In this document: piece after piece, positions 8,923-42,019 of the stretch
How positions within the stretch are numbered: position 1 is the stretch's first letter
Layout: each line of letters starts with the position of its first letter
Origin: Candidatus Magasanikbacteria bacterium GW2011_GWA2_56_11
GTDB taxonomy: Bacteria; Patescibacteriota; Patescibacteriia; Magasanikbacterales; UBA922
NCBI GenBank assembly: GCA_001004885.1
Contig: LCRX01000014.1
Span: 1,565-65,564, forward strand
Length of the DNA stretch: 64,000 nt
Direction of reading: 5' to 3'
Made by a program: the position numbers and the translations under genes
The notes under the pieces: generated by a model
The model's database searches: none
What the model saw: the letters and a program-made list of their open reading frames with translations, nothing else
Told to the model about the DNA's origin: nothing

Positions 8923-11787
<2,865 letters not shown>

Positions 11788-28754: not shown

Positions 28755-29039
28755 TCAAACGGAGCGGCAAGATTTTAATTTTCTGATTAACGAGCTGGCC
28801 AACCAACCGACTCCGTATAGCAGCGCAGCGTTTATTGCGATCGATAAAACATAGGAAACCGGATTGATGCCCGTGCCTACATTGAGAAAAAATATCCAGG
28901 GCGCGGCAGGTATAATAATCTCGATTCCGCACGACCAATCCCCCCGGGGGCAGTCCTCTAGTAAGCCATAGATACCAAGACCGATAGTTATCGTTAAATA
29001 CAATCCTACGAGGACTGGGCCGATTTTTGTTTTCTTCAT
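28755..29039 (-). CDS. small membrane protein (cassette ORF)
   Basis: 94 aa, hydrophobic. Confidence 0.35.
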   Translation of the reverse strand: MKKTKIGPVLVGLYLTITIGLGIYGLLEDCPRGDWSCGIEIIIPAAPWIFFLNVGTGINPVSYVLSIAINAALLYGVGWLASSLIRKLKSCRSV

Positions 29040-29115
29040 ATAACCGGATAAAAAACGCCAGACAAAAATCTTAACCTTTTTGTCCGCCTTAATTACCTAA
29101 AAAATATCAACCATT

Positions 29116-30249
29116 TTATTTTCGTTCAGGATATATCCGATATTCCAGGCAATGATACTCATTGCCGCCCAGACCTTTTTCGTCATACTCAGTTTCAATT
29201 TTTCCGCCTAGCGACTCAGGAATTTTTCGGCTGGAAATATTTTTATCAGCTACGGGATACAAAAGATAATCGTAATCCAAATTTTCGTCCGCCCACTTTT
29301 TAACTGCGACCATTGCTTCTTTGCCATAACCTTTCCCGTGCGCTGATTTTTTTATCCAAACGCCCATTTCTGGAGTTTTTCCATCAACATGGTGTAGGCC
29401 GGCACAGCCGAAAAATTCCTGAGAGTCTTTTGCGACAATTACAAGTTGAAGATTGCTACCTTCGTTCAAACCTTTTAGAGAATTTTCTATAAATACCTCA
29501 ATTCCCGAAATATCTTTGGCCGGAGCTTCATACATGAAAGTTGTTATTTCTGGTGAAAATTCTCTAAAAATTTCATCCCTATACCGCATTGATATTGGCA
29601 CGAGCAAAAGACGTTCGCTTTCTATGCGCTCTGCCAGTAATCCTTGTTCATTTTTCATAATTGGTTTTTCCATGATAAGAAAAACTCTGGACAATTTAAT
29701 TTCATCTTTGTCCGCTTTTTCTTTTAACAAGAGTATCGCCAACGCTGATCCCATGGCCACAATTTTATTTTTTAAAGCCATTTCAACAGCTCTATCGTAA
29801 TCCACTAAAATTACGTCAATGTCTTCTGGTACATAATCGCCGGAGTCATTTTTTTGATCGAGCTTGGATATGTCTTTGCTGAAAAATAAATGTATTTTAC
29901 GGTTAAGTTGACCGTATGTTTCATAAAAAACGCCGAGTTTTGTTAAAGAATTGCATGTATATCCTGTTTCCTCCTCAAATTCTCTCTTTGCGCCCTCCTC
30001 TATGGTCTCGGCGCTTTGATTATATCCTGAAGGAAATTCTATAACCTCATCATCAACCATATAACGGTACTGCTTGATCATGACAAGCTTTTTATCCTCA
30101 GTCATACCCACAACCATGGCTGAATCTGGACTATCCCAATAAGTCCATTCCCTTTTTTCGCCGTTGGGAAGCTCTACTATGTCCTGCCTTACTTTAAAGT
30201 ACTTAGAATCTAAGGCAAGTTTTGATTGTAGACATTTCCATTTTTTCAT
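29116..30249 (-). CDS. NUDIX hydrolase - GNAT N-acetyltransferase fusion protein
   Basis: N-terminal Nudix box GYNQSAETIEEGAKREFEEETGY. C-terminal RimJ/RimL-like GNAT (QLVIVAKDSQEFFGCAGLHHVD...GKGYGKEAM). Confidence 0.6.
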   Translation of the reverse strand: MKKWKCLQSKLALDSKYFKVRQDIVELPNGEKREWTYWDSPDSAMVVGMTEDKKLVMIKQYRYMVDDEVIEFPSGYNQSAETIEEGAKREFEEETGYTCNSLTKLGVFYETYGQLNRKIHLFFSKDISKLDQKNDSGDYVPEDIDVILVDYDRAVEMALKNKIVAMGSALAILLLKEKADKDEIKLSRVFLIMEKPIMKNEQGLLAERIESERLLLVPISMRYRDEIFREFSPEITTFMYEAPAKDISGIEVFIENSLKGLNEGSNLQLVIVAKDSQEFFGCAGLHHVDGKTPEMGVWIKKSAHGKGYGKEAMVAVKKWADENLDYDYLLYPVADKNISSRKIPESLGGKIETEYDEKGLGGNEYHCLEYRIYPERK

Positions 30250-30442
30250 AATTAATTTTATCGTTTTGGCGGGTCGCAAGAGGGGGGCGAAGGTGACGAA
30301 TCGCGGCCTGCCAAAACACCTACTTCAGTTTCCTTATTAGAGCAGTCGGTCGCGCGCATTTTTTTGTCTTCAGCAGGCATTTTCAACTGTTCCCAAAATG
30401 GGAACGGCTGTGATAACGCCGTGTCCCGTTCCTTCATTTTTG

Positions 30443-30589
30443 CCCAGTAAGTTTTTGGTTGTGGCTATCAGTTAAAACACCAACGATATCCAAAATTGAA
30501 AACCACCATTCTTTTTTATAAATGATTTTCCTTATTTCTTTGCCTTTAAACAAGGCAATATGGTGGTTTGGATTTTGAGTGTCTGACAT
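30443..30589 (-). pseudogene. Bro-N/KilA-N-like domain fragment (remnant cassette ORF, under 60 aa)
   Basis: MSDTQNPNHHIALFKGKEIRKIIYKKEWWFSILDIVGVL matches the Bro-N N-terminal pattern; then stop and frameshifted continuation. Confidence 0.3.
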
Positions 30590-30645
30590 AGTGTAATAAT
30601 TTATTAAATATCGGTTCGGCGGGCATTCTATTCGTATTTGGATTA

Positions 30646-31053
30646 CTAATTTTCTTCGTAAAAAACTTCCAATCTCAAACCATCGGGATCGTGAAAGAAA
30701 ACCGCGTAATACAATTCATCTCCGTAGTCCGGGTAATGTCTTGGTTTTCCGTCAGTATTGGCTTTCATTTTAGTGAGAAGTTTGTATAAATCATCCACAA
30801 TTTTCTTTTTCCCCACGGCCATACCAAGGTGATGAAAACCGACCCTATAATGGTCAAACTTGTCAGCAAAATACTCTTTGTGCCCTTGAAAAATAGCTAA
30901 AAAATACGGAAAGTTTTTTGATTGATAATAAACATGCTGTTTATTTGCGAACGCGATAGTAAAACCGAGGGAGCCAAGCACTTTATCATACCAAAGTTTA
31001 GACTTTCTCAAGTTTTTTACGGTAAGAACGAAATGACTTCTTTTTTCAATCAT
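30646..31053 (-). CDS. VOC family protein (glyoxalase/bleomycin-resistance fold)
   Basis: 135 aa; HHLGMAV...DPDGLRLEVF pattern. Confidence 0.55.
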   Translation of the reverse strand: MIEKRSHFVLTVKNLRKSKLWYDKVLGSLGFTIAFANKQHVYYQSKNFPYFLAIFQGHKEYFADKFDHYRVGFHHLGMAVGKKKIVDDLYKLLTKMKANTDGKPRHYPDYGDELYYAVFFHDPDGLRLEVFYEEN

Positions 31054-31084
31054 ATGTTTTATTCATAATTGTCTGTATTTTATT

Positions 31085-31143
31085 GCGCCTAACGTCCGTG
31101 CATATGCGCGATGTTTCAATATCGTATATACGCTGTTAGGCGC
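31085..31143 (-). repeat. attC-like recombination site (59 bp)
   Basis: GCGCCTAAC ... GTTAGGCGC perfect inverse cores; begins 12 bp after the cupin stop codon. Confidence 0.6.
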
Positions 31144-31154
31144 GGTTTCGCCGA

Positions 31155-31514
31155 TCACAGCACCTCCTCGTCCTCCTTGTGCCACGCCGGATCGACAATA
31201 CAGAGGAACACAAGATCGGTCTTTCCTGAGTTGCGAATATACTGTTGTGTGTTTGGCGGGATATACACGGCCTGGCCCGGACAAACTTTTTTCGACTCCT
31301 CGCCGATCTGCATGACCCCTTCGCCTTCGAGAATGTAATAGACTTCTGACGTCTTCAACTTATGCGGATAAGAGGTTTTTCCCGGCTTGACTACTGCGTG
31401 CGCCAGACTGTAGCGGAGTTCAAGATCGTCTTTCTCCGGATGCAAGAGTTCGCGCAGGATTGTATTGTCTCCGGCGATGAACTCTTCACAATCTTTTAGA
31501 TCTTTGATAAACAT
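31155..31514 (-). CDS. cupin domain protein
   Basis: 119 aa, conserved cupin Gly/His pattern. Confidence 0.55.
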   Translation of the reverse strand: MFIKDLKDCEEFIAGDNTILRELLHPEKDDLELRYSLAHAVVKPGKTSYPHKLKTSEVYYILEGEGVMQIGEESKKVCPGQAVYIPPNTQQYIRNSGKTDLVFLCIVDPAWHKEDEEVL

Positions 31515-31528
31515 AGGCGAAACAATTT

Positions 31529-31601
31529 CAGCTAATGTTTGCGCGATATGACGTGCGGAGCATATGGGCGGGTGGCGCGAACCGTGTACACGCTTAGGAC
31601 G
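31529..31601 (-). repeat. attC-like site (degenerate cores)
   Basis: cagctaatgtttgcgcg ... gtgtacacgcttaggacg inverted ends; followed by GNRA hairpin gggcGAAAgccc. Confidence 0.45.
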
Positions 31602-31642
31602 TGATAAGGGCGAAAGCCCCGCAGCGATATCGCCGTACCCGT

Positions 31643-32773
31643 TTATTTCATGAAAATATCAATATATTTTCGATAGACAAATGCGCGGTCGTAGGTTTCT
31701 TTGGCGTCTTTCAATTCAAGAATATCAAGGTTCATAAATCTGTCGATAAGTTTTTGGGATCCAACGCGAGAAAATTTGGTCCACTCCATTATTGTTTTAC
31801 TTGAGACAATCGGCTGAGCATACAATTTTCGTAATACCAAAACACCGCTTGCCGACTCTCTCTTCGCCAGGGATTGAATTTTTGCCATGTCGTTTTCTCG
31901 AAGTTTGGTAATTTGTTTTGATACGGATATTGAATCGTTGGCTGTTTCAATGACGCCATCAAGAAAAAAATCAATCCACGATTCAACCTCGCCAAAATGA
32001 TAATCATGCAGTTTTTGGTAGTAAATTTTTTGATGTTTTTTAAAATATGACGATAAAAATAATACCGGCCGCTCAAGCATGTTGCGGTGGCAAAGAAGCA
32101 TGGTTATCAATAAGCGGCCGGCTCTTCCGTTGCCATCAAGAAACGGGTGTATCGTTTCAAATTGGGCGTGAGTAAGGGCGGCGTGGATTAAGGGAAGAGC
32201 TAATTTTTCGTTGTGTAAGAATTTTTCCAGATCATTCAAAGCCCTGTTCATCTCACTCACTGTCGGCGGGACAAATGAAGCATTATTCGGCGTCGTTCCG
32301 CCAATCCAGTTCTGTGATTTGCGGAATTCGCCCGGATCGGCAAAATGAGTGGCGCGGGCATCAGTCATCAATTGCGCGTGTATTTCGCGGATCAATCGCA
32401 AAGAGAGCGGAAAATCTTTTAGTCGTTCAACACCGTAGTTGAGTGCTTTGATGTAGAACAAAATATCGTCAGCATCAGTTTTTTTAACCGTTACGCCGGC
32501 ATTCATTTCTATCGCATCGGCCATACTGGCCTTAGTGCCCTCAATTTGAGAAGAGGAAGCCGCGTCTTTAGCGACGAACATGGAAAGAAAAAAGTCCACA
32601 TCAGGCAGGGTGTGGGTTATACCGTCCAGTTTACCGATTAAGCGGTCCGCTTCTGCCGCTTTAATCAGTATGGCCTGTGATAATTCGAGCAATCCTTTAG
32701 GGGGGAACGGACGTGGCACAAAGGCGGTAAAACCCTCTGTTTGTTTGACATTTTGACCGATTTCAATTTTCAT
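31643..32773 (-). CDS. Fic family protein (AMPylator) with winged-helix domains
   Basis: Fic motif HPFLDGNGRAGR. Confidence 0.8.
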   Translation of the reverse strand: MKIEIGQNVKQTEGFTAFVPRPFPPKGLLELSQAILIKAAEADRLIGKLDGITHTLPDVDFFLSMFVAKDAASSSQIEGTKASMADAIEMNAGVTVKKTDADDILFYIKALNYGVERLKDFPLSLRLIREIHAQLMTDARATHFADPGEFRKSQNWIGGTTPNNASFVPPTVSEMNRALNDLEKFLHNEKLALPLIHAALTHAQFETIHPFLDGNGRAGRLLITMLLCHRNMLERPVLFLSSYFKKHQKIYYQKLHDYHFGEVESWIDFFLDGVIETANDSISVSKQITKLRENDMAKIQSLAKRESASGVLVLRKLYAQPIVSSKTIMEWTKFSRVGSQKLIDRFMNLDILELKDAKETYDRAFVYRKYIDIFMK

Positions 32774-32805
32774 AGATAGTTTACTAGTTTTTTATGATAT
32801 AAACT

Positions 32806-32834
32806 ATCTTATACCTTAGTTTATATGTTGTCAA
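32806..32834 (-). promoter_or_regulatory. sigma70-like promoter for fic with overlapping 10-bp inverted repeat (possible operator)
   Basis: Minus strand TTGACA, 17 nt, TAAGAT. Inverted repeat agatagttta/taaactatct (32775-32809) overlaps the -10 and TSS. Confidence 0.35.
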
Positions 32835-33045
32835 GAGATGAAAACTAAGTATTTTTTTATTCGCTTAGAAGAGCGAATAATGGCCCTCCGGTTCTTTCTT
32901 TTTTGGCCCAAATGTCAACGCATTCATCTTAACCATTAGCGGCCATTATGCGATAAGGAAATTTTCTTACCTTTTTTAAATGTTCTTCCAGAGTATATCC
33001 AATTAATGAATTGGCGCCGAATGCGTATAGGCTGTGAGCAAAATA

Positions 33046-33660
33046 TCACAAGCAGTAATTAATCAAAAAAATATCCATCTCTTGATTTTTGGCGATATTG
33101 TTTAAAAAATAAGCCAGTTTGAATCTTAAATTGCCATCCCATATAATATTTTCGATTCTGCACTGGCCGAACTCCGACAAGGTTTCAAATGTAAAACTTT
33201 TTGGAATTTTAATAACTACATTAGGCGTAATGTATCGTTTAGTTAGATTAAACATTTCTCGCGTGCTTGGTTGCGTATCATCAATGTTGTTTGCGTGAGT
33301 AGGAGGATTTACCCCTTGCATATTCCATTCGGGGTCAAGTATTGCCACATCAGCTGGCAAGCTTTTTAATAAATCAGGATCGAGCGCATCGCCAACGATG
33401 AAGTTAGTCCTCTCTTCTACCCCATATAATACAGCGTTCTTTTTGGCGTCCTCTATCCTTGATGGAATTATATCAACGCCACATGCGCTTTTTAAATGTT
33501 TTGCTAATTGCACGACAATCATGCCGGTGGCGCAACATAGTTCAACTGCGGTTTTAAATTGCGCTAGACTTTTGGCTATGTGTTCACCCACAAATTCAGG
33601 GCAGCTCATATCATAAGCATCCCGATCGGAGAATATATTTTTTGTGAATTTTTTCTTCAT
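33046..33660 (-). CDS. SAM-dependent methyltransferase, Tgs1/RNA-cap guanine-N2 MTase-like
   Basis: VELCCATGMIVVQLA...GVDI...DAKKNAVLYGV...FIVGDALD pattern. Confidence 0.5.
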   Translation of the reverse strand: MKKKFTKNIFSDRDAYDMSCPEFVGEHIAKSLAQFKTAVELCCATGMIVVQLAKHLKSACGVDIIPSRIEDAKKNAVLYGVEERTNFIVGDALDPDLLKSLPADVAILDPEWNMQGVNPPTHANNIDDTQPSTREMFNLTKRYITPNVVIKIPKSFTFETLSEFGQCRIENIIWDGNLRFKLAYFLNNIAKNQEMDIFLINYCL

Positions 33661-33716
33661 AATTCAAGTACGCGCTTTTTCCTGGACCCCACACACGCTG
33701 TTATACTATGTATCGC

Positions 33717-34337
33717 TCAAACCGTCATCTCTACGGCAAAAAGTTCTTTTCTGCATGTGGTCATAATACCGACATGGCAAGCAGCGACCTTGGTGGCCGT
33801 AAATTTTAACGGCAAGATTTCCTGCCCCGCTGCTTCTTTGGTTCGGATTGTAATGTGCGGATCAAAAGCCTCGAAACTGTGAGACGCTGCGAATTTATTT
33901 ATCCAGTCTGGTTCAGCCACTTCCTCGCCCGTTCTTGAGAAAAGCGATCCTTTCGTGCAGTCATATGAAAAGTATTGTCGAAGCCCGTTCATAAGATTCT
34001 CATGAAGCCGCTGTAATTCAGAGGATTTTCTTGCGCGGACGGCATAGATTTTAGATCCATCGGATTTTTCTGCGTAATATAACTCCGCTAGCTCAACGAG
34101 AATCGGACTAAAGTTTTTTACTATACCTTCGACAATACTTTTCACGGTTTCGAGGCTGTCGTCTTCAATGCCACCCATAGCCAATGACATGTGCGGCAGG
34201 AAATCATCTTTCGCCAGCGGACCCCAAGCCGCATTTCTAGTTGCTGCTTGCTGGTTAATATCAATTATCTTTTCCATTACATCTAGGGGCGGAAGAATGG
34301 CCACATCTATTGCTAACTTTTTAGAGATTGTGTTCAT
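33717..34337 (-). CDS. 2H phosphoesterase superfamily protein (LigT / 2'-5' RNA ligase-like)
   Basis: Two H-x-T/S-x motifs (PHMSLA and PHITIR). Confidence 0.5.
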   Translation of the reverse strand: MNTISKKLAIDVAILPPLDVMEKIIDINQQAATRNAAWGPLAKDDFLPHMSLAMGGIEDDSLETVKSIVEGIVKNFSPILVELAELYYAEKSDGSKIYAVRARKSSELQRLHENLMNGLRQYFSYDCTKGSLFSRTGEEVAEPDWINKFAASHSFEAFDPHITIRTKEAAGQEILPLKFTATKVAACHVGIMTTCRKELFAVEMTV

Positions 34338-34370
34338 AGGATTACGCAGAGAGAGATACTTCGCCTAACG

Positions 34371-34489
34371 TTCGCGCCGATGCAAAGTTGCTGCGCGGTA
34401 CAATTTAACGCGGGGCGCTCTAGCGCGCAACAATTTGGATGAGCACGCCCACAAGGAGCGAACTGCGCATGCGCTGTTGTACGATGACC
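34371..34489 (-). repeat. attC-like site
   Basis: + strand cgcctaacgttcgcg ... cgctgttgtacgatgac. Cassette orientation: TACAAC...cgcgaacGTTAGGCG. Confidence 0.5.
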
Positions 34490-34496
34490 ACTTTTT

Positions 34497-34670
34497 CTAT
34501 TTCTTTTTTAAACCGTTCTTTTGCGCGTAAGCTCGTGCTGCTGCAGCGCTCGAACCGCCAGTATATTTCGGTTTAGTTTTTATACTGGCAGAAACAGTTA
34601 CGCCGTCTGTATCTGTTTCTATAGTTATTGAATTGCCTTTGTTGTCGGAATAAGTTTCGATTTTACCCAT
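34497..34670 (-). CDS. small cassette ORF (57 aa, below ORF-track cutoff)
   Basis: MGKIETYSDNKGNSITIETDTDGVTVSASIKTKPKYTGGSSAAAARAYAQKNGLKKK between two attC-like sites. Confidence 0.25.
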   Translation of the reverse strand: MGKIETYSDNKGNSITIETDTDGVTVSASIKTKPKYTGGSSAAAARAYAQKNGLKKK

Positions 34671-34717
34671 ATTGTCTAGATTAAAAGTGATTTAAGTGAT
34701 ATAGAAAAAGTGGCTTT

Positions 34718-34915
34718 CGCGCAACGTTCGTGTGTATGTGAAGTTTTCATCCCGTTTTAACGGAATTACTTTAATTATCAAACACACCTTTTTTAATAAA
34801 CTCCACCCAAATCCTCATCCCTTAAACAGAGAGGATTTAGGTGGAGGAAAATTGGCGCTCTTTAAGGATTTAATTAACGCCAATTTTCCGTGGCCAGATA
34901 TGCGTTGTTATGTCC
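34718..34915 (-). repeat. attC-like site (long, ~200 bp, with 16-bp internal hairpin)
   Basis: cgcgcaacgttcgtgtgtatg ... gatatgcgttgttatgtcc ends. Internal stem ctccacccaaatcctc/gaggatttaggtggag. Confidence 0.45.
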
Positions 34916-34945
34916 TGTAAAAAAAATTTTGCCAAGCTTTTTCTG

Positions 34946-35197
34946 TTATTCTTCAGTGTTTACTCCTACTCCATCATAATATGGCTCATCATCGGCATTG
35001 CAAGATACAAAATTAAGTTCTATACCTCCTTCAAATTTAATAGTAACACCCCCTGAATTATCGAGTTCAAATCCCACTACTACTTTCCCCATTAAAGTCC
35101 CGAGCCGCTTTTCTAATCTCCTCGCGGGTGTATCTTTCTCAACTACCTCCTCAACTACCTCGACTTTTGATATTTCCCTAGGATTTCCTTCAGACAT
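34946..35197 (-). CDS. small acidic hypothetical protein (cassette ORF)
   Basis: 83 aa. Confidence 0.35.
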   Translation of the reverse strand: MSEGNPREISKVEVVEEVVEKDTPARRLEKRLGTLMGKVVVGFELDNSGGVTIKFEGGIELNFVSCNADDEPYYDGVGVNTEE

Positions 35198-35233
35198 ACA
35201 TTAATTATTTAATGATTAAAAATTTTTATTATG

Positions 35234-35340
35234 GCGTATAACGTCGTGTGCATGCGATATGGCACAATGATATATTTTACTCATCATTGTGCCATATGGG
35301 CGAGGCTTCAGCCGAGTCGCATGCACGCTATTATGTGATG
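35234..35340 (-). repeat. attC-like site
   Basis: gcgtataacgtcgtgtgcatgcg ... gcatgcacgctattatgtg ends; central 11-bp hairpin tggcacaatga/tcattgtgcca. Confidence 0.5.
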
Positions 35341-35345
35341 TCGCG

Positions 35346-36041
35346 CTAATTTTTCTGCTCTTTAAAAGAGATATCCTTCATTAAAGTATCAAGTCCATCG
35401 GCCTTGCTGTAACTTACAACCGCTTGGAGGTGATAATCGCCAAATGCATTCGGTACAAAATATTCCAGTCGACTGATTTGCCCCTGGTCAAACATTTTCT
35501 CGAAATAGTCTGTTTTTACACGCAATGCATTTTTGCCATTCACGCTTACTTTTTGCGCGGTGGCATTTTTATTTTCGTAACCAAGCGCCTTTATTATTTC
35601 AGATTCTGACTGGTTAAAGTTAATGCATTCAAAACAAGTAGTGCTGTAATCTGCTGCTGCCGGAGCAAAATCTTTCGTTTCCCACCAAAGTTGCGGCGTT
35701 GATGGAGCATTATCAACGCTTGTATATTTTTCATTTGCAAAGCCAATTTTAAATAGCTTTCCTATGCCGTCTTTGTGTGTCTCATCTGTAAATTTTGGTG
35801 TGCCCCACGAATTGTTATAACAGAAAGAAAGATTTTGCGATTCATACATTGTCCAGTTTTGGGGACATTCTACTTTTGTTTCTGTGCGCTCGACTGTCTT
35901 TTCACTTACAACTCGTGTTGAGGTAATGTCGGGTGCTGTCTCAGCATTTCTATTTTGCCAAAGAAAAATGCCACCGCCTACAACGACGACTGTAACTATA
36001 ACAGCAAGGCCGATTGTCCATGGATTAGTTTTGTACTCCAT
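35346..36041 (-). CDS. membrane-anchored/secreted hypothetical protein (cassette ORF)
   Basis: 231 aa, N-terminal TM, Cys-containing extracytoplasmic domain. Confidence 0.45.
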   Translation of the reverse strand: MEYKTNPWTIGLAVIVTVVVVGGGIFLWQNRNAETAPDITSTRVVSEKTVERTETKVECPQNWTMYESQNLSFCYNNSWGTPKFTDETHKDGIGKLFKIGFANEKYTSVDNAPSTPQLWWETKDFAPAAADYSTTCFECINFNQSESEIIKALGYENKNATAQKVSVNGKNALRVKTDYFEKMFDQGQISRLEYFVPNAFGDYHLQAVVSYSKADGLDTLMKDISFKEQKN

Positions 36042-36100
36042 AATGTTTTGGTTAAGAATTAAACCTACTTTAATGTAAAAGAAAAATTAGCGCAATTTCG

Positions 36101-36163
36101 CATAACCTTCGCGTCTCATCTACTGTAGAGCGCTTGCGGAATGGCGGGTAGACGCTGTTATGT
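36101..36163 (-). repeat. attC-like site (~63 bp)
   Basis: Cassette orientation: (stop)TAACagcgtc ... gagacgcgaagGTTATGCG. The Nudix stop codon lies inside the R''-like core. Confidence 0.5.
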
Positions 36164-36682
36164 GATGTGCATCCCGGAGCCAACATTATTTGAAAAATAG
36201 TCAACACATTCTTTGGTAGATTTTAGAAAAATATCAGGAAAATCAGCTAATTTCTTAAGTAACTCCTCTCTAGAGAACCATTTTATTTGTTCGACTTCTT
36301 CCTTTTGGATTGTAAACTCATGAATATCTTTATCTAACAAGGCAAAATACCACTGTACAAAATGTTTATGTTTACCGTCATTCATTTTATAAAACGCCTT
36401 TTCGAAGTGACAGTTATTTAAACCAATTTCTTCCTCGGCCTCCTTAATGATATTTGATTCATAGGTTTCTCCCTGGTCAATGGTCCCTGCAACGGCAGGC
36501 CCCCATTTTCCGGGGTCATGCTTTTTGTTGAATGATCGTTGGGCTAGGAGGGTGTCACCTTTAGAATTCTGAATCCATAAGGCCGAGACGCGATAGATGT
36601 CTTCTGGTTTCAAAGTTCCTCGCTCTTTCAATCCAATGACGCTATCCTTTTCATCGACAATTATAATTTTTGCCTTACTCAT
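36158..36682 (-). CDS. NUDIX hydrolase
   Basis: Nudix box GTIDQGETYESNIIKEAEEEIGL. Confidence 0.6.
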   Translation of the reverse strand: MSKAKIIIVDEKDSVIGLKERGTLKPEDIYRVSALWIQNSKGDTLLAQRSFNKKHDPGKWGPAVAGTIDQGETYESNIIKEAEEEIGLNNCHFEKAFYKMNDGKHKHFVQWYFALLDKDIHEFTIQKEEVEQIKWFSREELLKKLADFPDIFLKSTKECVDYFSNNVGSGMHIT

Positions 36683-36731
36683 ATTCGTTTACAATTCAAT
36701 GCTTTCTTGCGAAAAGCTCCGGGCAGCATAT

Positions 36732-36861
36732 CACATAACGTTCGCGCGTATCGATGTTCACTGGCTGTATAATATCGCGAAGCGGTACAGCCAGCAAATA
36801 TGGGCGGAGGCTTGCGGAGGAACGGAGCAAGCCGTAGCCGCATACACGCTGTTAGCTGATG
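36732..36861 (-). repeat. attC-like site
   Basis: Cassette orientation: catcAGCTAACagcgtgtatg ... catcgatacgcgcgaacGTTATGTG; central 8-bp hairpin. Confidence 0.5.
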
Positions 36862-36904
36862 TAAATAAATTCAATGAGCGAAGCGAATATTATTCAGACA
36901 AATT

Positions 36905-37513
36905 TTAAAAAAATCCCAAGAGATTGAAAAACAATCTAACAGAAAAAATGATAATCACTAACGATGCCAGGAAATTGAAACTAGCGATTATTTTTTTGTT
37001 GCCGGTTTTATTGATCGCTGAACCTAGATAGACGACTACAACGAAACAAAGAAATGATCCGATTGACAAAGATAGTGAGTTAGCTATGATTGTTTGAAAG
37101 ATATGCTCTTTTATGTTTAGAAAGGAAGTTGCGACTCCAATAAAATAAACATAAGTAAGAGGAGATAGCGCACAGAGAACCATTCCATTTAGAAAGGATT
37201 GTTTTTCAATCGGGTTGTCACTATTACTTAACTTTCCAAGACTTTTTAGAAAACCTGTTATTCCAACGAATAACATATAGCCGACGCCGACCATTCCGAT
37301 ACCATAATACAGCCAAGGAATTTTTATAAATTGACTGATTCCAAAGTAGCTCAATACAAGAATAATAAAGTTCATTGTCGCTACACCAGATGCCAAAACA
37401 ATCCCTTGGCGTTTTTTACCAAGAAGCGAAGTTTGTAATACTGTTGTTTGAATCACACCTGGGGAGGCGGCGGCGCTAAAACCGATTATAAAGCTTGAAA
37501 GTAATAGTGACAT
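36905..37513 (-). CDS. LysE/RhtB family amino-acid exporter
   Basis: 202 aa, 6 TM helices, LysE-type N-terminal pattern. Confidence 0.6.
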   Translation of the reverse strand: MSLLLSSFIIGFSAAASPGVIQTTVLQTSLLGKKRQGIVLASGVATMNFIILVLSYFGISQFIKIPWLYYGIGMVGVGYMLFVGITGFLKSLGKLSNSDNPIEKQSFLNGMVLCALSPLTYVYFIGVATSFLNIKEHIFQTIIANSLSLSIGSFLCFVVVVYLGSAINKTGNKKIIASFNFLASLVIIIFSVRLFFNLLGFF

Positions 37514-37570
37514 TTTTTAAAATTTGTCTGAATAATTTTTCGGCCACAGCCGAAAAGAATTTATTTATTT

Positions 37571-37673
37571 CAGCTAACGTTTCGGCATATCTGATGTTTG
37601 CCGTAGCGTAGCGGAGGCAAATATGGGTGGAGGCTTTTGTAAAAAGCCGTAACCAGATATGCCGAACATCTCA
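37571..37673 (-). repeat. attC-like site
   Basis: cagctaacgtttcggcatatctg ... cagatatgccgaacatc inverted arms; the HNH stop codon abuts the site. Confidence 0.5.
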
Positions 37674-38264
37674 ATCAATACCTTCAGTTTTTAACAGTGC
37701 TTTAACGCATAACGAGTATTCTTTGTCTTCTTCTGCCTCTGGTTTTATGCTTTCTAATACTGCTTCTTTTGCACTATCTTCTAGCTTTGCACATGCTCCA
37801 ATAACTTTTTTGAGCAAATTGATTCTATCTTGTCGTCTTTCAATTAAAGCTGGGCGGTTTAGGTGCACGCCGCTTTGCTCTTCAATGGTAATTTTTCCTT
37901 TTGTTGAATTATCCTTATGTGCAAAGAAAGCTCCCAATACGACTATATGTGTTTCGGGGTCTTCATCGTATGGATTAAGGATTGGATTTGCTTCATCATA
38001 TTTGTCAGATTTATAGCCGTTGCAACGTGCACAGACGTATCCTAAATTTCCCCAATCAAATTCTAAGCCTGGGAATTTTGACTTTGGCTTTATGTGTTCA
38101 ATGTCACCGTAGTAAGTATGGGATACTTTGCTTTCGCAATACATGCATTTATCATGACTGGCCAAGATGAGAACCGCCTTGTTGTCAGGGTGTTTATAAT
38201 TTGTTCTCAATGCCTCTTGATTTGGGCATTGTGGTCTACTTAGTTTGATCATTTGAATTTTCAA
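37671..38264 (-). CDS. HNH endonuclease (PtuB-like)
   Basis: CMYCESK...GDIEHIKPKS...CARCNGYK HNH/zinc motif; overlaps the ATPase gene by 29 bp. Confidence 0.6.
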   Translation of the reverse strand: MKIQMIKLSRPQCPNQEALRTNYKHPDNKAVLILASHDKCMYCESKVSHTYYGDIEHIKPKSKFPGLEFDWGNLGYVCARCNGYKSDKYDEANPILNPYDEDPETHIVVLGAFFAHKDNSTKGKITIEEQSGVHLNRPALIERRQDRINLLKKVIGACAKLEDSAKEAVLESIKPEAEEDKEYSLCVKALLKTEGID

Positions 38265-39480
38265 TTAAGCTGTAAACGGCTTCGGGCATGATTTTCTCTA
38301 GTCCCATTTCCTTTAACTCATTGCGCATTTGAGTAAATTTTTCTTTGGTAATGCTTTCTTTCGAGTATTTTGCGACTATCTCATTCAACTTATCTTCTAC
38401 CCATATTGGCATTGTAAAGGCCACGCCCAAAACTTCATCCAATATTTCCGCCGCTGTCTTTGCTTTATTTATGAAGTCTAGTCGTTCACTGACAATTTTA
38501 TTGTTTTCGTTATATCTCAAGGCGTATACATTTGATTCTTTAACTGAACCAACAATGAGCGGATTATGAGTAGAGACGATAAAGCGTGTATTTGGAAACG
38601 CCCCAAGGAAGTCTGGCAATATTTGCCGTTGCATTGTCGGATGAAGATGATTTTCAACTTCATCTATTAAAACAGTAAAATTGGGATTATCTTTTTCCTC
38701 TGTGGCATAAAAATAAATTTGCCAAGCAAGGTCTATTATTGCGCTTATTCCACCAGATGAAGCATCAATAACAAACTCACCTGATGTACAAATCAGTAGA
38801 ACCTCTGAGTTTCGTATAGCAAATTTTTGAAAACCTAAAGTTTTGGGCAGTACTTTTTTAAGTACCTCTTGAAAACCATTGTAATATTCGAGAAGGGTTT
38901 CATTCGCATCCATATCTTTGTTGCCTTGGCCAAAAATACTCCAGCAAATGAGAGCTTCTTTTATATGAAAACTACTTGGAACGTCATTTCCGCCACCATA
39001 TCTACTTTTGTTACTATTCCAAACTTTATCGAAAGCCTGTTTTTTGTTGATTGTATTTGCGGTTGGAATTTGAGTTACTTTTTGGTATCTGAATATTGAT
39101 CTATGTGAGGGGATGAAAAAGCACTTTACTCCTTGTTGCCCCTCGATTTGCATGTTGTATTGTGCCTCGTTTTGTTCTTTTGGCACCTTCAATATAGCTT
39201 TTTGTCCATCACTATAATTTAATTCACCTTTAGTATCTTTTGGCTCCTCATCTTCCACCCAAAAGGAAGAGAACCATTTCCAAACCTTGGTTTTTATGTC
39301 CTTTTTTGGAGTTGCTAAGGATTTTGCATCCCAACCGCAATGTCTTGCTAAAAGATGCAACAGAGTTGTTTTACCACTTGCATTTGCGCCTGTTAAAATA
39401 GTCAACCGATCATGGAAATCTATTTCGATATTTTCAAATTGTTGCCACTCCGCTGTAATTTTTAATTTTTTGAAATCCAT
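38236..39480 (-). CDS. AAA_21/ABC-type ATPase (PtuA/OLD-like)
   Basis: Walker A GANASGKTT. Walker B VLIDEVENHLHP. STHNP motif. Confidence 0.65.
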   Translation of the reverse strand: MDFKKLKITAEWQQFENIEIDFHDRLTILTGANASGKTTLLHLLARHCGWDAKSLATPKKDIKTKVWKWFSSFWVEDEEPKDTKGELNYSDGQKAILKVPKEQNEAQYNMQIEGQQGVKCFFIPSHRSIFRYQKVTQIPTANTINKKQAFDKVWNSNKSRYGGGNDVPSSFHIKEALICWSIFGQGNKDMDANETLLEYYNGFQEVLKKVLPKTLGFQKFAIRNSEVLLICTSGEFVIDASSGGISAIIDLAWQIYFYATEEKDNPNFTVLIDEVENHLHPTMQRQILPDFLGAFPNTRFIVSTHNPLIVGSVKESNVYALRYNENNKIVSERLDFINKAKTAAEILDEVLGVAFTMPIWVEDKLNEIVAKYSKESITKEKFTQMRNELKEMGLEKIMPEAVYSLIENSNDQTK

Positions 39481-39501
39481 AGATTGATCCTACTGCAAAA
39501 C

Positions 39502-40440
39502 CTATTTTTTAAATTCTCTGAAGTACTTGCCGAATACTTTCTGGAACAAAACTGTTTTTTCATAAAGCCAAGCAAAATATTTTTCTGCTTCGGCTTGGTC
39601 AAATACGCCTGAAACTTCCTTTTTAATTTTTATACGGGAGGCGACGGCCGCATCCACCCATTCGATAGACTCGCCAATTTCTTTTTCAATTTCTGCTTTT
39701 CGTTCGCGTAAAAAAATAAATAAGTCTTTATTTCTGCTGATATAAATCTCACAGCCAATCAAGTTTTCACGAGAGTTAATAGTTAGTGCTACATGGCCGT
39801 CTGAACTGCCCATGCTAACATCGTACCAATGTTGAGGGCGAGGAGTTTGTAGTCGGATTTGGGTGTCGTTTTCTCGTACATAATTTTTGAATTTGTTCCA
39901 AAATTCAAGCTGTTGCAATTTTGTATCAGTTAGCTCGCCATTTGATGGACTTGTCTTAATTGCCTTTGCCCATTCATTTGGACTAACCATAATCTCAAAT
40001 TTTGGCGCAGGATTCGAGCCTTCTATTTGCCAAAGTTCAATTTTTATCAAAAAGAAACCGATATTTTCATCTGTATGTTCGTTAAGCCAATCGATCGCTT
40101 TTTGATGTTCATCGCGTACATCTTTAACAATCCAAATAATTATTTCCGCATCGTATCCCGACGCATAAGTAATAATTTTTCCTAAATGATCGTGGTTGGT
40201 ATCTTCGAGCTGATTTTCGATTATAATCTTTCTCCCTGACGCTTCTTCTTCGGCGAGGATATCAACGCTAAATTTTCCCACGCTCGCTTCGGTTTTGATA
40301 AGTTTTATATCAACGCCTATTTCTTCACTCAAGGCATCAAGATTTTCTTGCTGTGCGAGCCAGTTAGTAAAATCAATGGCTTCGTGACTCCAGACATCGC
40401 GTAGTTCAACTTTATTTAGTTTAGATAGTGATTTTTTCAT
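39502..40440 (-). CDS. DUF4268-like protein with possible PD-(D/E)xK nuclease core
   Basis: 312 aa; VDILAEEE...IIIENQL motif; 21 bp upstream of the ATPase gene with no attC between them. Confidence 0.45.
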   Translation of the reverse strand: MKKSLSKLNKVELRDVWSHEAIDFTNWLAQQENLDALSEEIGVDIKLIKTEASVGKFSVDILAEEEASGRKIIIENQLEDTNHDHLGKIITYASGYDAEIIIWIVKDVRDEHQKAIDWLNEHTDENIGFFLIKIELWQIEGSNPAPKFEIMVSPNEWAKAIKTSPSNGELTDTKLQQLEFWNKFKNYVRENDTQIRLQTPRPQHWYDVSMGSSDGHVALTINSRENLIGCEIYISRNKDLFIFLRERKAEIEKEIGESIEWVDAAVASRIKIKKEVSGVFDQAEAEKYFAWLYEKTVLFQKVFGKYFREFKK

Positions 40441-40607
40441 AGTGTAAATTTACTTACTGTTATTGTATTCGTTTTCCCCTTATAAATAAATCGTTTTCGG
40501 AGCAAAGCGGAGAAAACACCTTATATCCCCTTTAAAAATAAAGAAAAAGAAATTTGAAAATTTTTTAAAACAATTGGGCGATAGCCCAAAAAAGAAAAGG
40601 AATATTT

Positions 40608-40750
40608 CAGCTAATGTTCGCGTGTATGAGAAGTTTCGCCGACTTCCTTACTCTTAATTATAGAGGAGGCGAAATTTGGGTGAAAGAAAAAGTGCAGCCG
40701 CTGAAAAATATTAACGCACTTTTTCTTAAACCTCATACACCCTGTTAGGC
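40608..40750 (-). repeat. attC-like site (~143 bp) after the first cassette
   Basis: Cassette orientation: (stop TAA inside) GCCTAACagggtgtatgag ... ctcatacacgcgaacATTAGCTG. Confidence 0.55.
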
Positions 40751-41080
40751 GATGTATTCTTTTTCTTTGTTATCATCTTTATTTTTATTTTTTTCATCAT
40801 AGTACTCATAATTTTTCTTATTGCCCCAAACTCTAAATTTGGCAACCATAAAACCACTGATGATAAGTGCCACTCCTATTTTCCAGTTTATAAAGAGAAA
40901 AATTAATCCTGCGATTACTAATTCTCCAGTAATCACGCTTAATAGAGGATTTGGTCCCAAAGGAAAAACGTGCAATAGCGTGCCAATGATGAAAAGCACT
41001 ATTGATACTTGCCAGTTGAAAAAAATAAAAACGATTGCGGCGATTGCCATCAGATACTTTATTGCGTTTAGAATTTTCAT
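40745..41080 (-). CDS. small membrane protein (first cassette after attI-like site)
   Basis: 111 aa, 3 TM helices, Lys/Asp-rich tail; stop codon inside GCCTAAC. Confidence 0.4.
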   Translation of the reverse strand: MKILNAIKYLMAIAAIVFIFFNWQVSIVLFIIGTLLHVFPLGPNPLLSVITGELVIAGLIFLFINWKIGVALIISGFMVAKFRVWGNKKNYEYYDEKNKNKDDNKEKEYIA

Positions 41081-41104
41081 AATTTTATCTTAAAAGAAAA
41101 AGAA

Positions 41105-41131
41105 TATTTCACCTAACTGGCCGTTATAACC
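41105..41131 (-). other. attI-like site (GTTAGGT core) between cassette 1 and the recombinase gene
   Basis: Minus strand GTTATAACggccaGTTAGGTgaaatatt. The gaaat(a/t) motif after the core is shared with the R' ends of attC sites at 40608 and 37571. Confidence 0.4.
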
Positions 41132-41206
41132 AATGTTTTTTAATTAACAGCCAAAATTTGTATGATAAACGAATAGATGCTAGGCTTAGGTTACTTTTCA
41201 AAAAAC

Positions 41207-42019
41207 ATGGCAAACCTAATCGAAATTCTAACACGAGAGATAAAATTGCGCAATTACAGCCCAAAAACGCTGGCGGCCTATGTTTTTGTTGTCAGGGACA
41301 TCTATGCCTTTCACCAGCGGCCGCCAAAGGAACTCACAACTGAAGATATAAAGGACTACCTCCTGGCCAAGCAAAAAAAAGGCCTGTCAAGCCAGACCGT
41401 CGCCCTTTATGCCAACGCGCTCAACTTTCTCTATGGCGAGGTGTACAAACGCCCCAACTTTGTCCGGATTAAACACCCCAAACGGTCCTCACGGCTCCCG
41501 GTGGTGCTGCGCCGGGACGAAATCGAGCGATTGTTGGCTGTCATCAAAAATATTAAGCACCGAACGCTGGTGGCGCTGGCCTATGGCGCCGGACTCCGAG
41601 TGGGCGAGGCGGTGCGTCTCAGGGTCGCGGACATTGACCTTGACGAGCTCACGATAACCGTGCGCCAAGGAAAGGGTAAAAAAGACAGGCTGACCGTTCT
41701 ATCCGCAAGTCTGACGCCGGACTTGCGTGAATTTATGACTGGCAAAACTGGCCAAGCGTATATTTTCGGCAGCGAACGGGGCGGCCGTTTAACCGAAGCC
41801 ACCGCGCAAAAAGTATTCGTCCGCGCGCTCCAAAAAGCCGGCGTTGTAAAGCCGGCCACCTTCCATTCGCTGCGCCACTCCTTCGCCACTCACCTCTTGG
41901 AAAACGGCGTGGACGTGCGCTATGTGCAAGAGCTATTGGGACACGCCAATATCCGCACCACGCAAATTTATACCAAAGTAACGAATCCAAGGCTCAAAAA
42001 TATCAAAAGCCCCCTATGA
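41207..42019 (+). CDS. tyrosine site-specific recombinase, XerC/XerD-like (candidate cassette integrase; lacks IntI additional domain)
   Basis: R...K...HSLRHSFATHLL...LLGHANIRTTQIYTKV catalytic motifs. ~42 aa between K-box and HxxR (XerD length, not IntI). 4-bp ATGA overlap with elp3. Confidence 0.8.
   Translation: MANLIEILTREIKLRNYSPKTLAAYVFVVRDIYAFHQRPPKELTTEDIKDYLLAKQKKGLSSQTVALYANALNFLYGEVYKRPNFVRIKHPKRSSRLPVVLRRDEIERLLAVIKNIKHRTLVALAYGAGLRVGEAVRLRVADIDLDELTITVRQGKGKKDRLTVLSASLTPDLREFMTGKTGQAYIFGSERGGRLTEATAQKVFVRALQKAGVVKPATFHSLRHSFATHLLENGVDVRYVQELLGHANIRTTQIYTKVTNPRLKNIKSPL

Follow-up and report, generated by a model that had tools for sequence, protein, structure and literature searches.

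Gene layout of the locus

The stretch of DNA analyzed here, referred to as the window, comprises 64,000 nucleotides of the genome of Candidatus Magasanikbacteria bacterium GW2011_GWA2_56_11 (contig LCRX01000014.1), an uncultured groundwater bacterium of the Candidate Phyla Radiation (CPR). It contains an island of about 12 kb with a GC content of 37 to 44% within a surrounding genome of 57 to 60% GC, and this island holds three co-oriented genes on the minus strand (37671-40440), which encode a DUF4268 protein, an ABC-type ATPase, and an HNH nuclease, respectively. The unit formed by the three genes has a GC content of 37.1% and is placed in the chromosome, next to a tyrosine recombinase gene. 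Public annotation names the proteins of this region only as “OLD family-like,” “hypothetical,” and “phage integrase.” The analysis reported below indicates that the locus is probably one integron-type cassette carrying two independent antiphage systems, namely, a Septu pair (PtuA and PtuB) and a nuclease of the PDC-S11/Madara type. The three open reading frames (ORFs) are as follows.

39502-40440, minus strand: DUF4268 protein, 312 amino acids
38236-39480, minus strand: PtuA, the Septu ABC-type ATPase, 414 amino acids
37671-38264, minus strand: PtuB ORF as first called, 197 amino acids from a TTG start

The three ORFs, their lengths and strand, and the 21-nt spacer between the DUF4268 gene and ptuA (39481-39501) had been described in an earlier note made from the sequence, and they agreed with the ORF list. 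All of the motifs quoted there were also found: GANASGKTT, VLIDEVENHLHP, and STHNP in the ATPase and CMYCESK, GDIEHIKPKS, and CARCNGYK in the nuclease. The overlap between ptuA and the HNH gene was likewise present, but its length of 29 bp and the 197-amino-acid product were not upheld. Because four PtuB orthologs all begin with M-I-K, the start of PtuB was assigned to the ATG at 38252, in agreement with independent gene calls; the product then has 193 amino acids, and the overlap between ptuA and ptuB is 17 nt.

Identification of the Septu pair

By profile, fold, and conserved gene pairing, the ATPase and the HNH nuclease are a stand-alone Septu pair, the architecture that the earlier note had proposed for them. 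In the PADLOC comparison that it had recommended, both proteins matched Septu profiles: PtuA matched the PtuA profile PDLC00290 (E value, 7e-173) over residues 1-410 of 414, and PtuB matched PDLC00337 (1e-65). The Pfam matches were AAA_21 and AAA_15 for PtuA and HNH for PtuB. Sequence matches of PtuA in the PDB were to PtuA chains only, those of retron Ec78/Eco7 (1e-17) and of Septu (8ee4; 2e-13), and PtuB matched the solved PtuB 22bv (1e-7). An AlphaFold model of PtuA, built from an alignment of 30 homologs, had a predicted local distance difference test (pLDDT) score of 82 and a predicted template modeling (pTM) score of 0.81; the top 50 Foldseek matches of this model were exclusively PtuA, including E. 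coli Septu 8eea, 8ee4, and 8sux, with a best E value of 1e-15.

The residues expected of both enzymes are conserved. In PtuA, the Walker A residues G31/K37/T38, the Walker B residues D273/E274, and the H-loop residue H305 were invariant among the 30 homologs (alignment A2). The catalytic residues of the HNH protein, the possible lack of which had been raised as an objection, were present: numbered from the TTG codon, they comprise C40 and C43 of a CxxC motif, the catalytic pair E56-H57, N73, and C78, C81, and N82 of a CxxCN motif, and all eight were invariant in the orthologs (alignment A3). H57, which is H53 when counted from the ATG start, aligns with the histidine that was changed to alanine in the catalytic-dead PDB entry 22bu.

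Gene pairing was examined in four other contexts, in which the PtuA homologs had 95, 75, 63, and 55% identity; in all four, the ptuA homolog was followed by an overlapping HNH gene of about 193 codons. The surroundings of these pairs were unrelated to one another and included a defense island with GmrSD, a resolvase-flanked element, and a Shewanella prophage region. The cassette contains three ORFs only, none of which encodes a reverse transcriptase, and the retron-type NCBIfam models scored 114 bits (NF041760; cutoff, 500) and 45 bits (NF041761; cutoff, 150). A scan of the cassette and its leader against Rfam gave only a subthreshold U7 match, which was judged to be noise.

A role of the pair in DNA repair or housekeeping, as RecF/OLD-like proteins rather than a defense system, is extremely improbable. 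Such a role would be in keeping with weak matches to RecF, SMC_N, and ABC_tran and with the public annotation “OLD family-like,” but the weak matches are confined to the P-loop region and lie far under the cutoffs, whereas the full-length profile and fold matches are all to PtuA and the contexts of the homologs are defense islands and mobile elements.

Stand-alone Septu defense requires the Walker and HNH residues (PMC13096335). Upon infection, Septu cleaves tRNA-Tyr in the variable loop; PtuAB also nicks supercoiled DNA, an activity that ATP inhibits, and PtuA forms an inflammasome-like hexamer that holds PtuB via C-terminal helices (PMC13096335, PMC12819146). By analogy, the compact, 414-amino-acid version in this CPR bacterium may respond to the same trigger and act on the same substrate.

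The DUF4268 protein as a predicted modification-dependent nuclease

The DUF4268 protein is, by sequence, a PDC-S11 protein, a predicted modification-dependent nuclease of the “Madara”/MdgA type, with the function taken from the literature. It matched the PADLOC PDC-S11 profile PDLC04911 over its full length (1-308 of 318; 7e-121), and its C-terminal half (residues 177-306) matched Pfam DUF4268 (PF14088; 1e-28). The N-terminal half contains a putative PD-(D/E)xK core, D60...E75-N-Q77, which was invariant in 27 homologs (alignment A1), and D60 and E75-N-Q77 occupy positions equivalent to those of published catalytic residues (D63 of Madara and E77 of MdgA). The profile match, the Pfam domain, and the PD-(D/E)xK motif are all consistent with the initial description of a DUF4268-like protein with a possible nuclease core.

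PDC-S11, which was a candidate system until recently, was renamed Madara in a 2026 preprint (bioRxiv 10.64898/2026.09.05.749240). In that study, Madara restricted T4 containing glucosyl-hydroxymethylcytosine (glucosyl-hmC) and not unmodified T4, and the protein was described as having a NucS-like PD-(D/E)xK domain, inactivated by the D63A change, and a C-terminal reader-like domain. The DUF4268-containing nucleases MdgA and MdgB, identified by functional metagenomics in 2025, are also modification dependent, with E77A abolishing activity (10.1101/2025.02.28.640651).

Across CPR lineages, this subfamily of DUF4268 proteins is widespread and shows unusual conservation: more than 120 clusters have ≥81% amino acid identity, and nucleotide identity is 80 to 86%.

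Evidence for two independent systems

Rather than being an accessory of Septu, the DUF4268 gene is a separate defense system, because PtuAB homologs occur without it and its own homologs occur without PtuAB. It was adjacent to none of the PtuAB pairs in the four other contexts, including that of the 95%-identical pair, and PtuAB was absent from all six other contexts of DUF4268 homologs. Homologs with 87 to 96% identity stood alone in three loci (L096, L100, and L104), and in three others homologs lay 4 to 21 nt upstream of different defense operons, as follows.

L097: behind the DUF4268 homolog, Ymh, an EcoRI-type methylase, GmrSD, and an SLFN ATPase
L103: behind the DUF4268 homolog, a Tsp45I restriction-modification (R-M) system
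L105: behind the DUF4268 homolog, a type IIG R-M system

Furthermore, nucleotide homology divides the cassette into two modules. The DUF4268 module extends from 40443 to 39503, with about 90 nt of leader in addition in some loci, and the ptuAB module extends from 39489 to 37665 and is 89% identical in L091; the boundaries of both meet inside the 21-nt spacer. Because the homology splits in this way, the cassette looks like a mosaic, in which ptuAB would have been placed into a unit consisting of the leader and the DUF4268 gene. The DUF4268 gene was repeatedly found directly 5' of differing defense modules (P0121-P0240), and an insertion hotspot at its 3' flank is suggested.

The three genes were also considered as one tripartite system, in which a Septu variant would have the DUF4268 protein as its sensor or an accessory subunit. 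The common strand, the 21-nt spacing, the single leader, and the absence of an internal recombination site would agree with such a system, as would the frequent recruitment of extra sensor genes by defense systems. Against it stand the contexts in which each component occurs without the other (4 of 4 for PtuAB and 6 of 6 for DUF4268), published work showing that each is sufficient alone for defense, and the break of nucleotide homology in the spacer. The idea was dropped on the genomic-context evidence and is very unlikely to be correct.

The pairing of a modification-dependent nuclease with a system acting on unmodified phage has a precedent in BREX with Madara, an arrangement known to be complementary (bioRxiv 10.64898/2026.09.05.749240). 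The Madara-type nuclease and Septu could, by analogy, provide complementary coverage in the present cassette.

Cassette boundaries and population variants

The minus-strand island is an array of mostly single ORFs parted by imperfect hairpins, the ends of which conform to RYYYAAC...GTTRRRY: an R'' box RYYYAAC, usually followed by AGC-G, and an R' box in the form GAAC-GTTAKSY. At least nine such attC-like sites lie between 31087 and 40750. The sites were delineated by hand and then folded in comparison with shuffled sequences, and the best of them had z scores of -4.3 to -6.1. The L boxes of sites A, B, and E form perfect stems of 9 to 11 bp with an asymmetric central spacer and without clear extrahelical bases in minimum free energy folds. 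A strict regular-expression search with ungapped L-box pairing recovered only 4 of the approximately 9 sites, together with false positives, and was dropped. The cassette and its two flanking sites are as follows.

40614-37578, minus strand: defense cassette, crossover to crossover, with a length of 3,037 bp in this genome (intact population variant, 3,166 bp)
40750-40609, minus strand: upstream attC-like site, with R'' GCCTAAC, L'' GTGTATGAG, L' CTCATACAC, and R' ATTAGCT; part of the preceding 111-amino-acid cassette
37664-37572, minus strand: downstream attC-like site, retaining L'' CGGCATATCTG, L' CAGATATGCCG, and R' GTTAGCT; R'' gone

The attC-like sites that had been proposed at 40608 and 37571 were confirmed, their R' boxes lying at 40615-40609 and 37578-37572. 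The bottom strand of the upstream site folded with -24.3 kcal/mol (z = -4.3 versus shuffles), and that of the downstream site (37670-37572) had a z score of -5.6 versus shuffles. No attC fits between any of the three ORFs. The claim of the earlier note that the three genes form a single attC-bounded cassette was therefore borne out with respect to its edges and the lack of an internal site, and it needs to be qualified in that the downstream site is truncated at its 5' end in this genome.

This truncation reflects the absence of 129 bp at 37664/37665 in comparison with nine other assemblies (for the segment, see L001:7728-7856). The segment holds the R'' box CACATAAC of the downstream attC and the 3' untranslated region of ptuB, and in the intact versions the R'' box occurs in the context ACATC-ACATAAC-A-CGGCATATCTG. 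R-box pairing is restored in the fold of the intact L001 site and lost in that of the truncated version. Because the downstream attC lacks its R'' box, the defense cassette has probably lost the ability to be excised by itself in this genome. The 129-bp loss either is a true variant, with fusion of the cassette to the LysE cassette, or reflects faulty assembly of this metagenome-assembled genome (MAG). That the unit has become a fossil, either fixed in this genome or joined to the LysE cassette that follows it, or that the difference is an assembly or curation artifact, is a possibility of some weight, although not the favored one. The missing R'' box and the lost pairing are as it would predict, and the deletion occurs in this record alone among 10 contigs; nevertheless, R', L', and L'' are intact, the site is complete in the majority of the population, and the question bears on present mobility only and not on the nature of the element as a cassette.

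Rifle-type groundwater samples yielded at least 10 metagenome contigs with this locus. One of them, L006, was 99.97% identical to the window over the cassette and the next 9 kb of the array downstream, and the sequences diverged exactly upstream of 40614, where L006 has a different recombinase of the same family (37% amino acid identity; 41.7% GC), joined at GGTAG|TTAGCTG (L006:1-780). This junction lies precisely where crossover at a cassette boundary would be expected and provides independent support for the 5' edge; L006 itself either represents another organism or integron with the same array or is a chimeric contig. Contig L002 begins at 40611. In addition, L002 and L004 contain three extra cassettes (encoding a protein of 117 amino acids, a GNAT protein of 147 amino acids, and a protein of 154 amino acids) between the Fic and cupin cassettes, at a site corresponding to 31594-31613 in the window and 9128-10675 in L002. 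The possibility that the low-GC island had been joined to a high-GC genome by chimeric assembly was considered and rejected: L001 runs across both island borders with 100% identity, and the junction on the side of the integrase is covered by seven other assemblies.

The recombinase and its linkage to the array

A recombinase gene and an attI-like region lie beside the array.

41177-42019, plus strand: tyrosine recombinase, IntI-like, 280 amino acids, divergent from the cassette array
41081-41176, minus strand: attI-like region, with the first-cassette junction G|TTAGGTG at 41117/41116

The recombinase matched Pfam Phage_integrase (1e-45) and barely passed the NCBIfam XerA_Arch/integron integrase model (224 bits; cutoff, 220); it failed the integron integrase model TIGR02249, to which it matched in two stretches (224 versus a cutoff of 265). 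Its closest solved relative is the integron integrase VchIntIA (2a3v; 9e-49), and in the alignment residues 182-240 of VchIntIA (59 residues) are skipped opposite query residues 188-203 (16 residues). Because the recombinase lacks this IntI-specific insertion, the platform is integron-like and not a canonical integron. Bacterial and archaeal IntIs have been reported to have the IntI-specific domain. Stems without extrahelical bases might fit an integrase without the domain that reads such bases. The TTAGSTGAAAT motif of the attI-like region was also found at the starts of other cassettes (repeat families D4 and D10). The integrase gene and an Elp3-like radical-SAM/GNAT gene share 4 nt (42016-42019), where the stop of the former overlaps the start of the latter, and the GC content of the integrase gene, 52.6%, lies between that of the host (about 59%) and that of the cassettes (about 37%).

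Linkage between recombinases of this family and such arrays was counted in 80 loci with related integrases, mostly from Patescibacteria MAGs, with the R''-side motif TGTTNNNNGATGT and with 404 kb of sequence upstream and 619 kb downstream of the integrase genes.

Upstream of the integrase, expected strand: 60 matches
Upstream of the integrase, opposite strand: 2 matches
Downstream of the integrase, both strands: 5 matches

The motif was found in 23 of the 27 CPR-type loci having at least 4 kb of upstream sequence, and the window itself had three matches versus 0.23 expected. The link of the short-integrase family with such arrays is general and extends to many CPR genomes; no description of CPR integrons was found in the literature searched.

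An explanation without any integron-like platform, in which the recombinase is a housekeeping Xer protein and imported genes are separated by terminators or REP-like repeats that account for the hairpins, is unlikely. The recombinase has no IntI insertion and passes only the XerA/integron integrase model, and its gene overlaps the host Elp3-like gene, all of which would be expected under this explanation. It does not account for the R''/L''/L'/R' organization with RYYYAAC...GTTRRRY ends, for variants that differ by whole cassettes at the crossover, or for the polarized occurrence of the repeat motif upstream of the recombinase family in 23 of 27 CPR loci, and the best solved relative of the recombinase is an integron integrase.

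A leader shared with other defense cassettes

The region between the crossover and the DUF4268 gene is a conserved leader.

40614-40441, minus strand: cassette leader, about 170 nt, from the crossover to the DUF4268 start codon

Its elements, in order, are TTAGCTGAAATATTCC; a GC hairpin and T-run (40589-40574); an A/T tract; GGGGATATAAGG; the core; TAAGGGGAAAACGAA; and TACAAT. The core consists of TGTTTTCTCCGC-N-CGAAAACGATTTATTTA (40518-40483), also read as TGTTTTC...GAAAACGATTTATTTA, and the -10-like TACAAT lies at 40467-40462. The same leader precedes other cargo in arrays beside related integrases (L015, L016, L040, L046, and L070; also L108-L187), including two positions on L015 (4374-4408 and 8960-8994), and the cargo behind it is exemplified by the following.

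L015: helicase/restriction endonuclease and Shedu SduA
L015: PDC-M16A (TOTE) and a TPR protein
L040: type III R-M system
L046: Dam methylase, an ORF of unknown function, and a CD-NTase cyclase
L070: PDC-S14, a RadC-Dam fusion, and Dam

A metagenome scan for the leader core identified at least 119 contigs, and a scan of viral contigs gave no matches and no sign of the leader being phage-borne. Among 80 retrieved loci, an R'-type crossover motif was located 93 to 98 nt upstream of the core in 40 of 67 leaders, compared with 2.7% of background windows, and the similarity among leaders ended at the crossover on one side and just past a conserved TAYAAT on the other. The 59 first proteins encoded behind the leaders fell into 34 unrelated clusters, and the cargo was dominated by DNA methyltransferases, type I, IIG, and III enzymes, restriction nucleases, RadC-Dam fusions, and helicases. 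In the array of the window, the full leader was found at the defense cassette only.

From its conservation, we infer that the leader is a portable expression and regulation module for defense cassettes. The hairpin could insulate the cassette from upstream transcription, GAAAACGA and the TATAAGG repeats could form an operator-like protein-binding site, and TAYAAT could serve as the -10 element.

Other cassettes of the array

The whole array (28800-41100) has a GC content of 37 to 44% in a genome of 57 to 60% GC. Because the GC content of the array is well under that of the genome, the cassettes appear to have been drawn from a lower-GC gene pool. The remaining cargo includes NUDIX, LysE, 2'-5' RNA ligase-like, methyltransferase, cupin, and glyoxalase proteins and a NUDIX-GNAT fusion. 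The LysE cassette ORF is bracketed exactly by a 27-nt inverted repeat with 96% complementarity (AATATTATTCAGACAAATTTTAAAAAA; 36886-36912 and 37513-37539), and a similar motif was found upstream of another cassette ORF in L002 (about 10130-10160). The Fic/DOC cassette (31643-32773) has a 272-nt upstream region with a good promoter-like TTGACA...TATAAG; the attC-like site downstream of it (31530-31642) has no recognizable R'' box and folded no better than shuffled sequences (z = +0.9). A 366-nt segment in the distal part of the island (30280-30645) contains small ORFs only and no attC-like site.

Proposed mode of action and implications

The analysis establishes what the genes are, that the catalytic residues are present, where the cassette and its modules begin and end, and which variants occur in the population, and in the following scheme we infer phage protection, substrates, promoter, and recombinase activity. 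The two systems are probably cotranscribed, and expression would start from the leader of the cassette itself rather than from the integron promoter Pc. The C-terminal DUF4268 domain of the Madara-type protein would recognize hypermodified phage DNA, and the N-terminal NucS-like PD-(D/E)xK domain would cut that DNA, which would constitute a type IV restriction activity. PtuA would oligomerize and hold the HNH nuclease PtuB; infection would release or activate the PtuAB complex, and PtuB would then cleave nucleic acid, possibly as in the E. coli Septu precedent, where tRNA-Tyr cleavage and ATP-inhibited DNA nicking stop phage replication. Mobility of the cassette would depend on the neighboring short IntI-like recombinase acting on folded attC-like hairpins.

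Several points weigh against the interpretation of the locus as one integron-type cassette with two independent systems. The tight 21-nt spacing is compatible with some functional coupling of the two. In the AlphaFold model of the DUF4268 protein, residues 1-107 had pLDDT values of <50 and there was no nuclease fold match; the poor model is explained by the shallow alignment, in which all homologs were ≥81% identical, and the weak YbjN-like Foldseek matches to the C-terminal domain only (E value of about 8e-3) were treated as uninformative. The downstream attC is 5' truncated in this genome, with its R'' box deleted. Canonical attC recombination requires the IntI-specific domain, which is missing from this integrase, and the activity of the integrase on these sites is a prediction. 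Scans for sigma-70 promoters and terminators were at chance level (11 promoter-like sequences versus 12.5 expected and 3 terminator-like sequences versus 3.6 expected), and it is for this reason that the role of the leader is proposed from conservation. Finally, the host is uncultured, and the case is a computational one.

The broader proposal that CPR bacteria, or Patescibacteria, have an integron lineage of their own, with a short recombinase without the IntI insertion acting on hairpins without extrahelical bases and with defense operons packaged behind a shared leader of about 170 nt, is put forward tentatively. If it is true, the leader would allow toxic, multigene defense cassettes to be exchanged across CPR lineages and to be expressed or coregulated whatever their position in the array, and the cassette with Septu and Madara would be one member of a larger pool. 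The locus shows that large, multigene defense systems of known types travel as cassettes in ultrasmall CPR bacteria, whose phage defense is poorly known. The platform breaks a defining rule of integrons, having no IntI-specific domain and yet showing cassette-level exchange in natural populations, and the need for the extra domain of IntI thereby becomes a directly testable question. The leader, highly conserved and shared by dozens of unrelated defense operons, is a concrete candidate for a module through which such operons are regulated or expressed in common; it is also relevant to how cassettes that are not first in an array are expressed and to cassette assembly.

Comparison with known systems

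The Septu pair resembles E. coli Septu (8ee4, 8eea, and 8sux) and Septu Ec-B88 in comprising an ABC-type ATPase and an overlapping TIGR02646-like HNH gene, in its intact Walker A, Walker B, H-loop, and H-N-N/CxxC residues, in its fold, and in the C-terminal helices of PtuA and the helical C-terminal half of PtuB. It differs in the size of PtuA, which has 414 amino acids here, compared with 465 in the solved Septu PtuA and about 550 in retron PtuA, and in its identity of only about 15 to 18% to the solved proteins. Unlike known Septu systems, it is located in an attC-bounded cassette of a CPR bacterium.

The DUF4268 protein shares with Madara of E. coli ECOR34 and with MdgA and MdgB a full-length match to the PDC-S11 profile, an N-terminal PD-(D/E)xK motif, and a C-terminal DUF4268 domain; the likeness to E. 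coli Madara is based on the profile and on published residue positions. Its gene shares a cassette with Septu here, whereas Madara adjoins BREX.

The platform is similar to canonical integrons (IntI, attI, and attC), including those of archaea (Ghaly et al. 2022), in its divergent recombinase and its single-ORF cassettes between RYYYAAC/GTTRRRY hairpins, and also in its varying cassette content, with gain and loss at the G|TT crossover. It departs from canonical integrons in its recombinase, in which 16 residues stand opposite 59 of VchIntIA, and in its best-defined sites, whose L boxes form perfect stems without obvious extrahelical bases.

Carriage of defense systems by integrons is itself established, both for cassettes in mobile integrons, termed BRiCs, and for the biobanks in sedentary integrons, which include two-gene cassettes. 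Such cargo, which the earlier note had called topical, has been in the literature since 2024. The cargo of the present cassette is also known, both Septu and PDC-S11/Madara being cataloged, and the integron-like platform and the leader are the unusual part. With the published defense cassettes, the present one has in common the attC-bounded defense genes beside a tyrosine recombinase. It differs from them in containing three genes and two cataloged systems within 3 kb in a CPR host, in being associated with an integrase without the IntI-specific domain, and in possessing a leader that is common to other defense cassettes.

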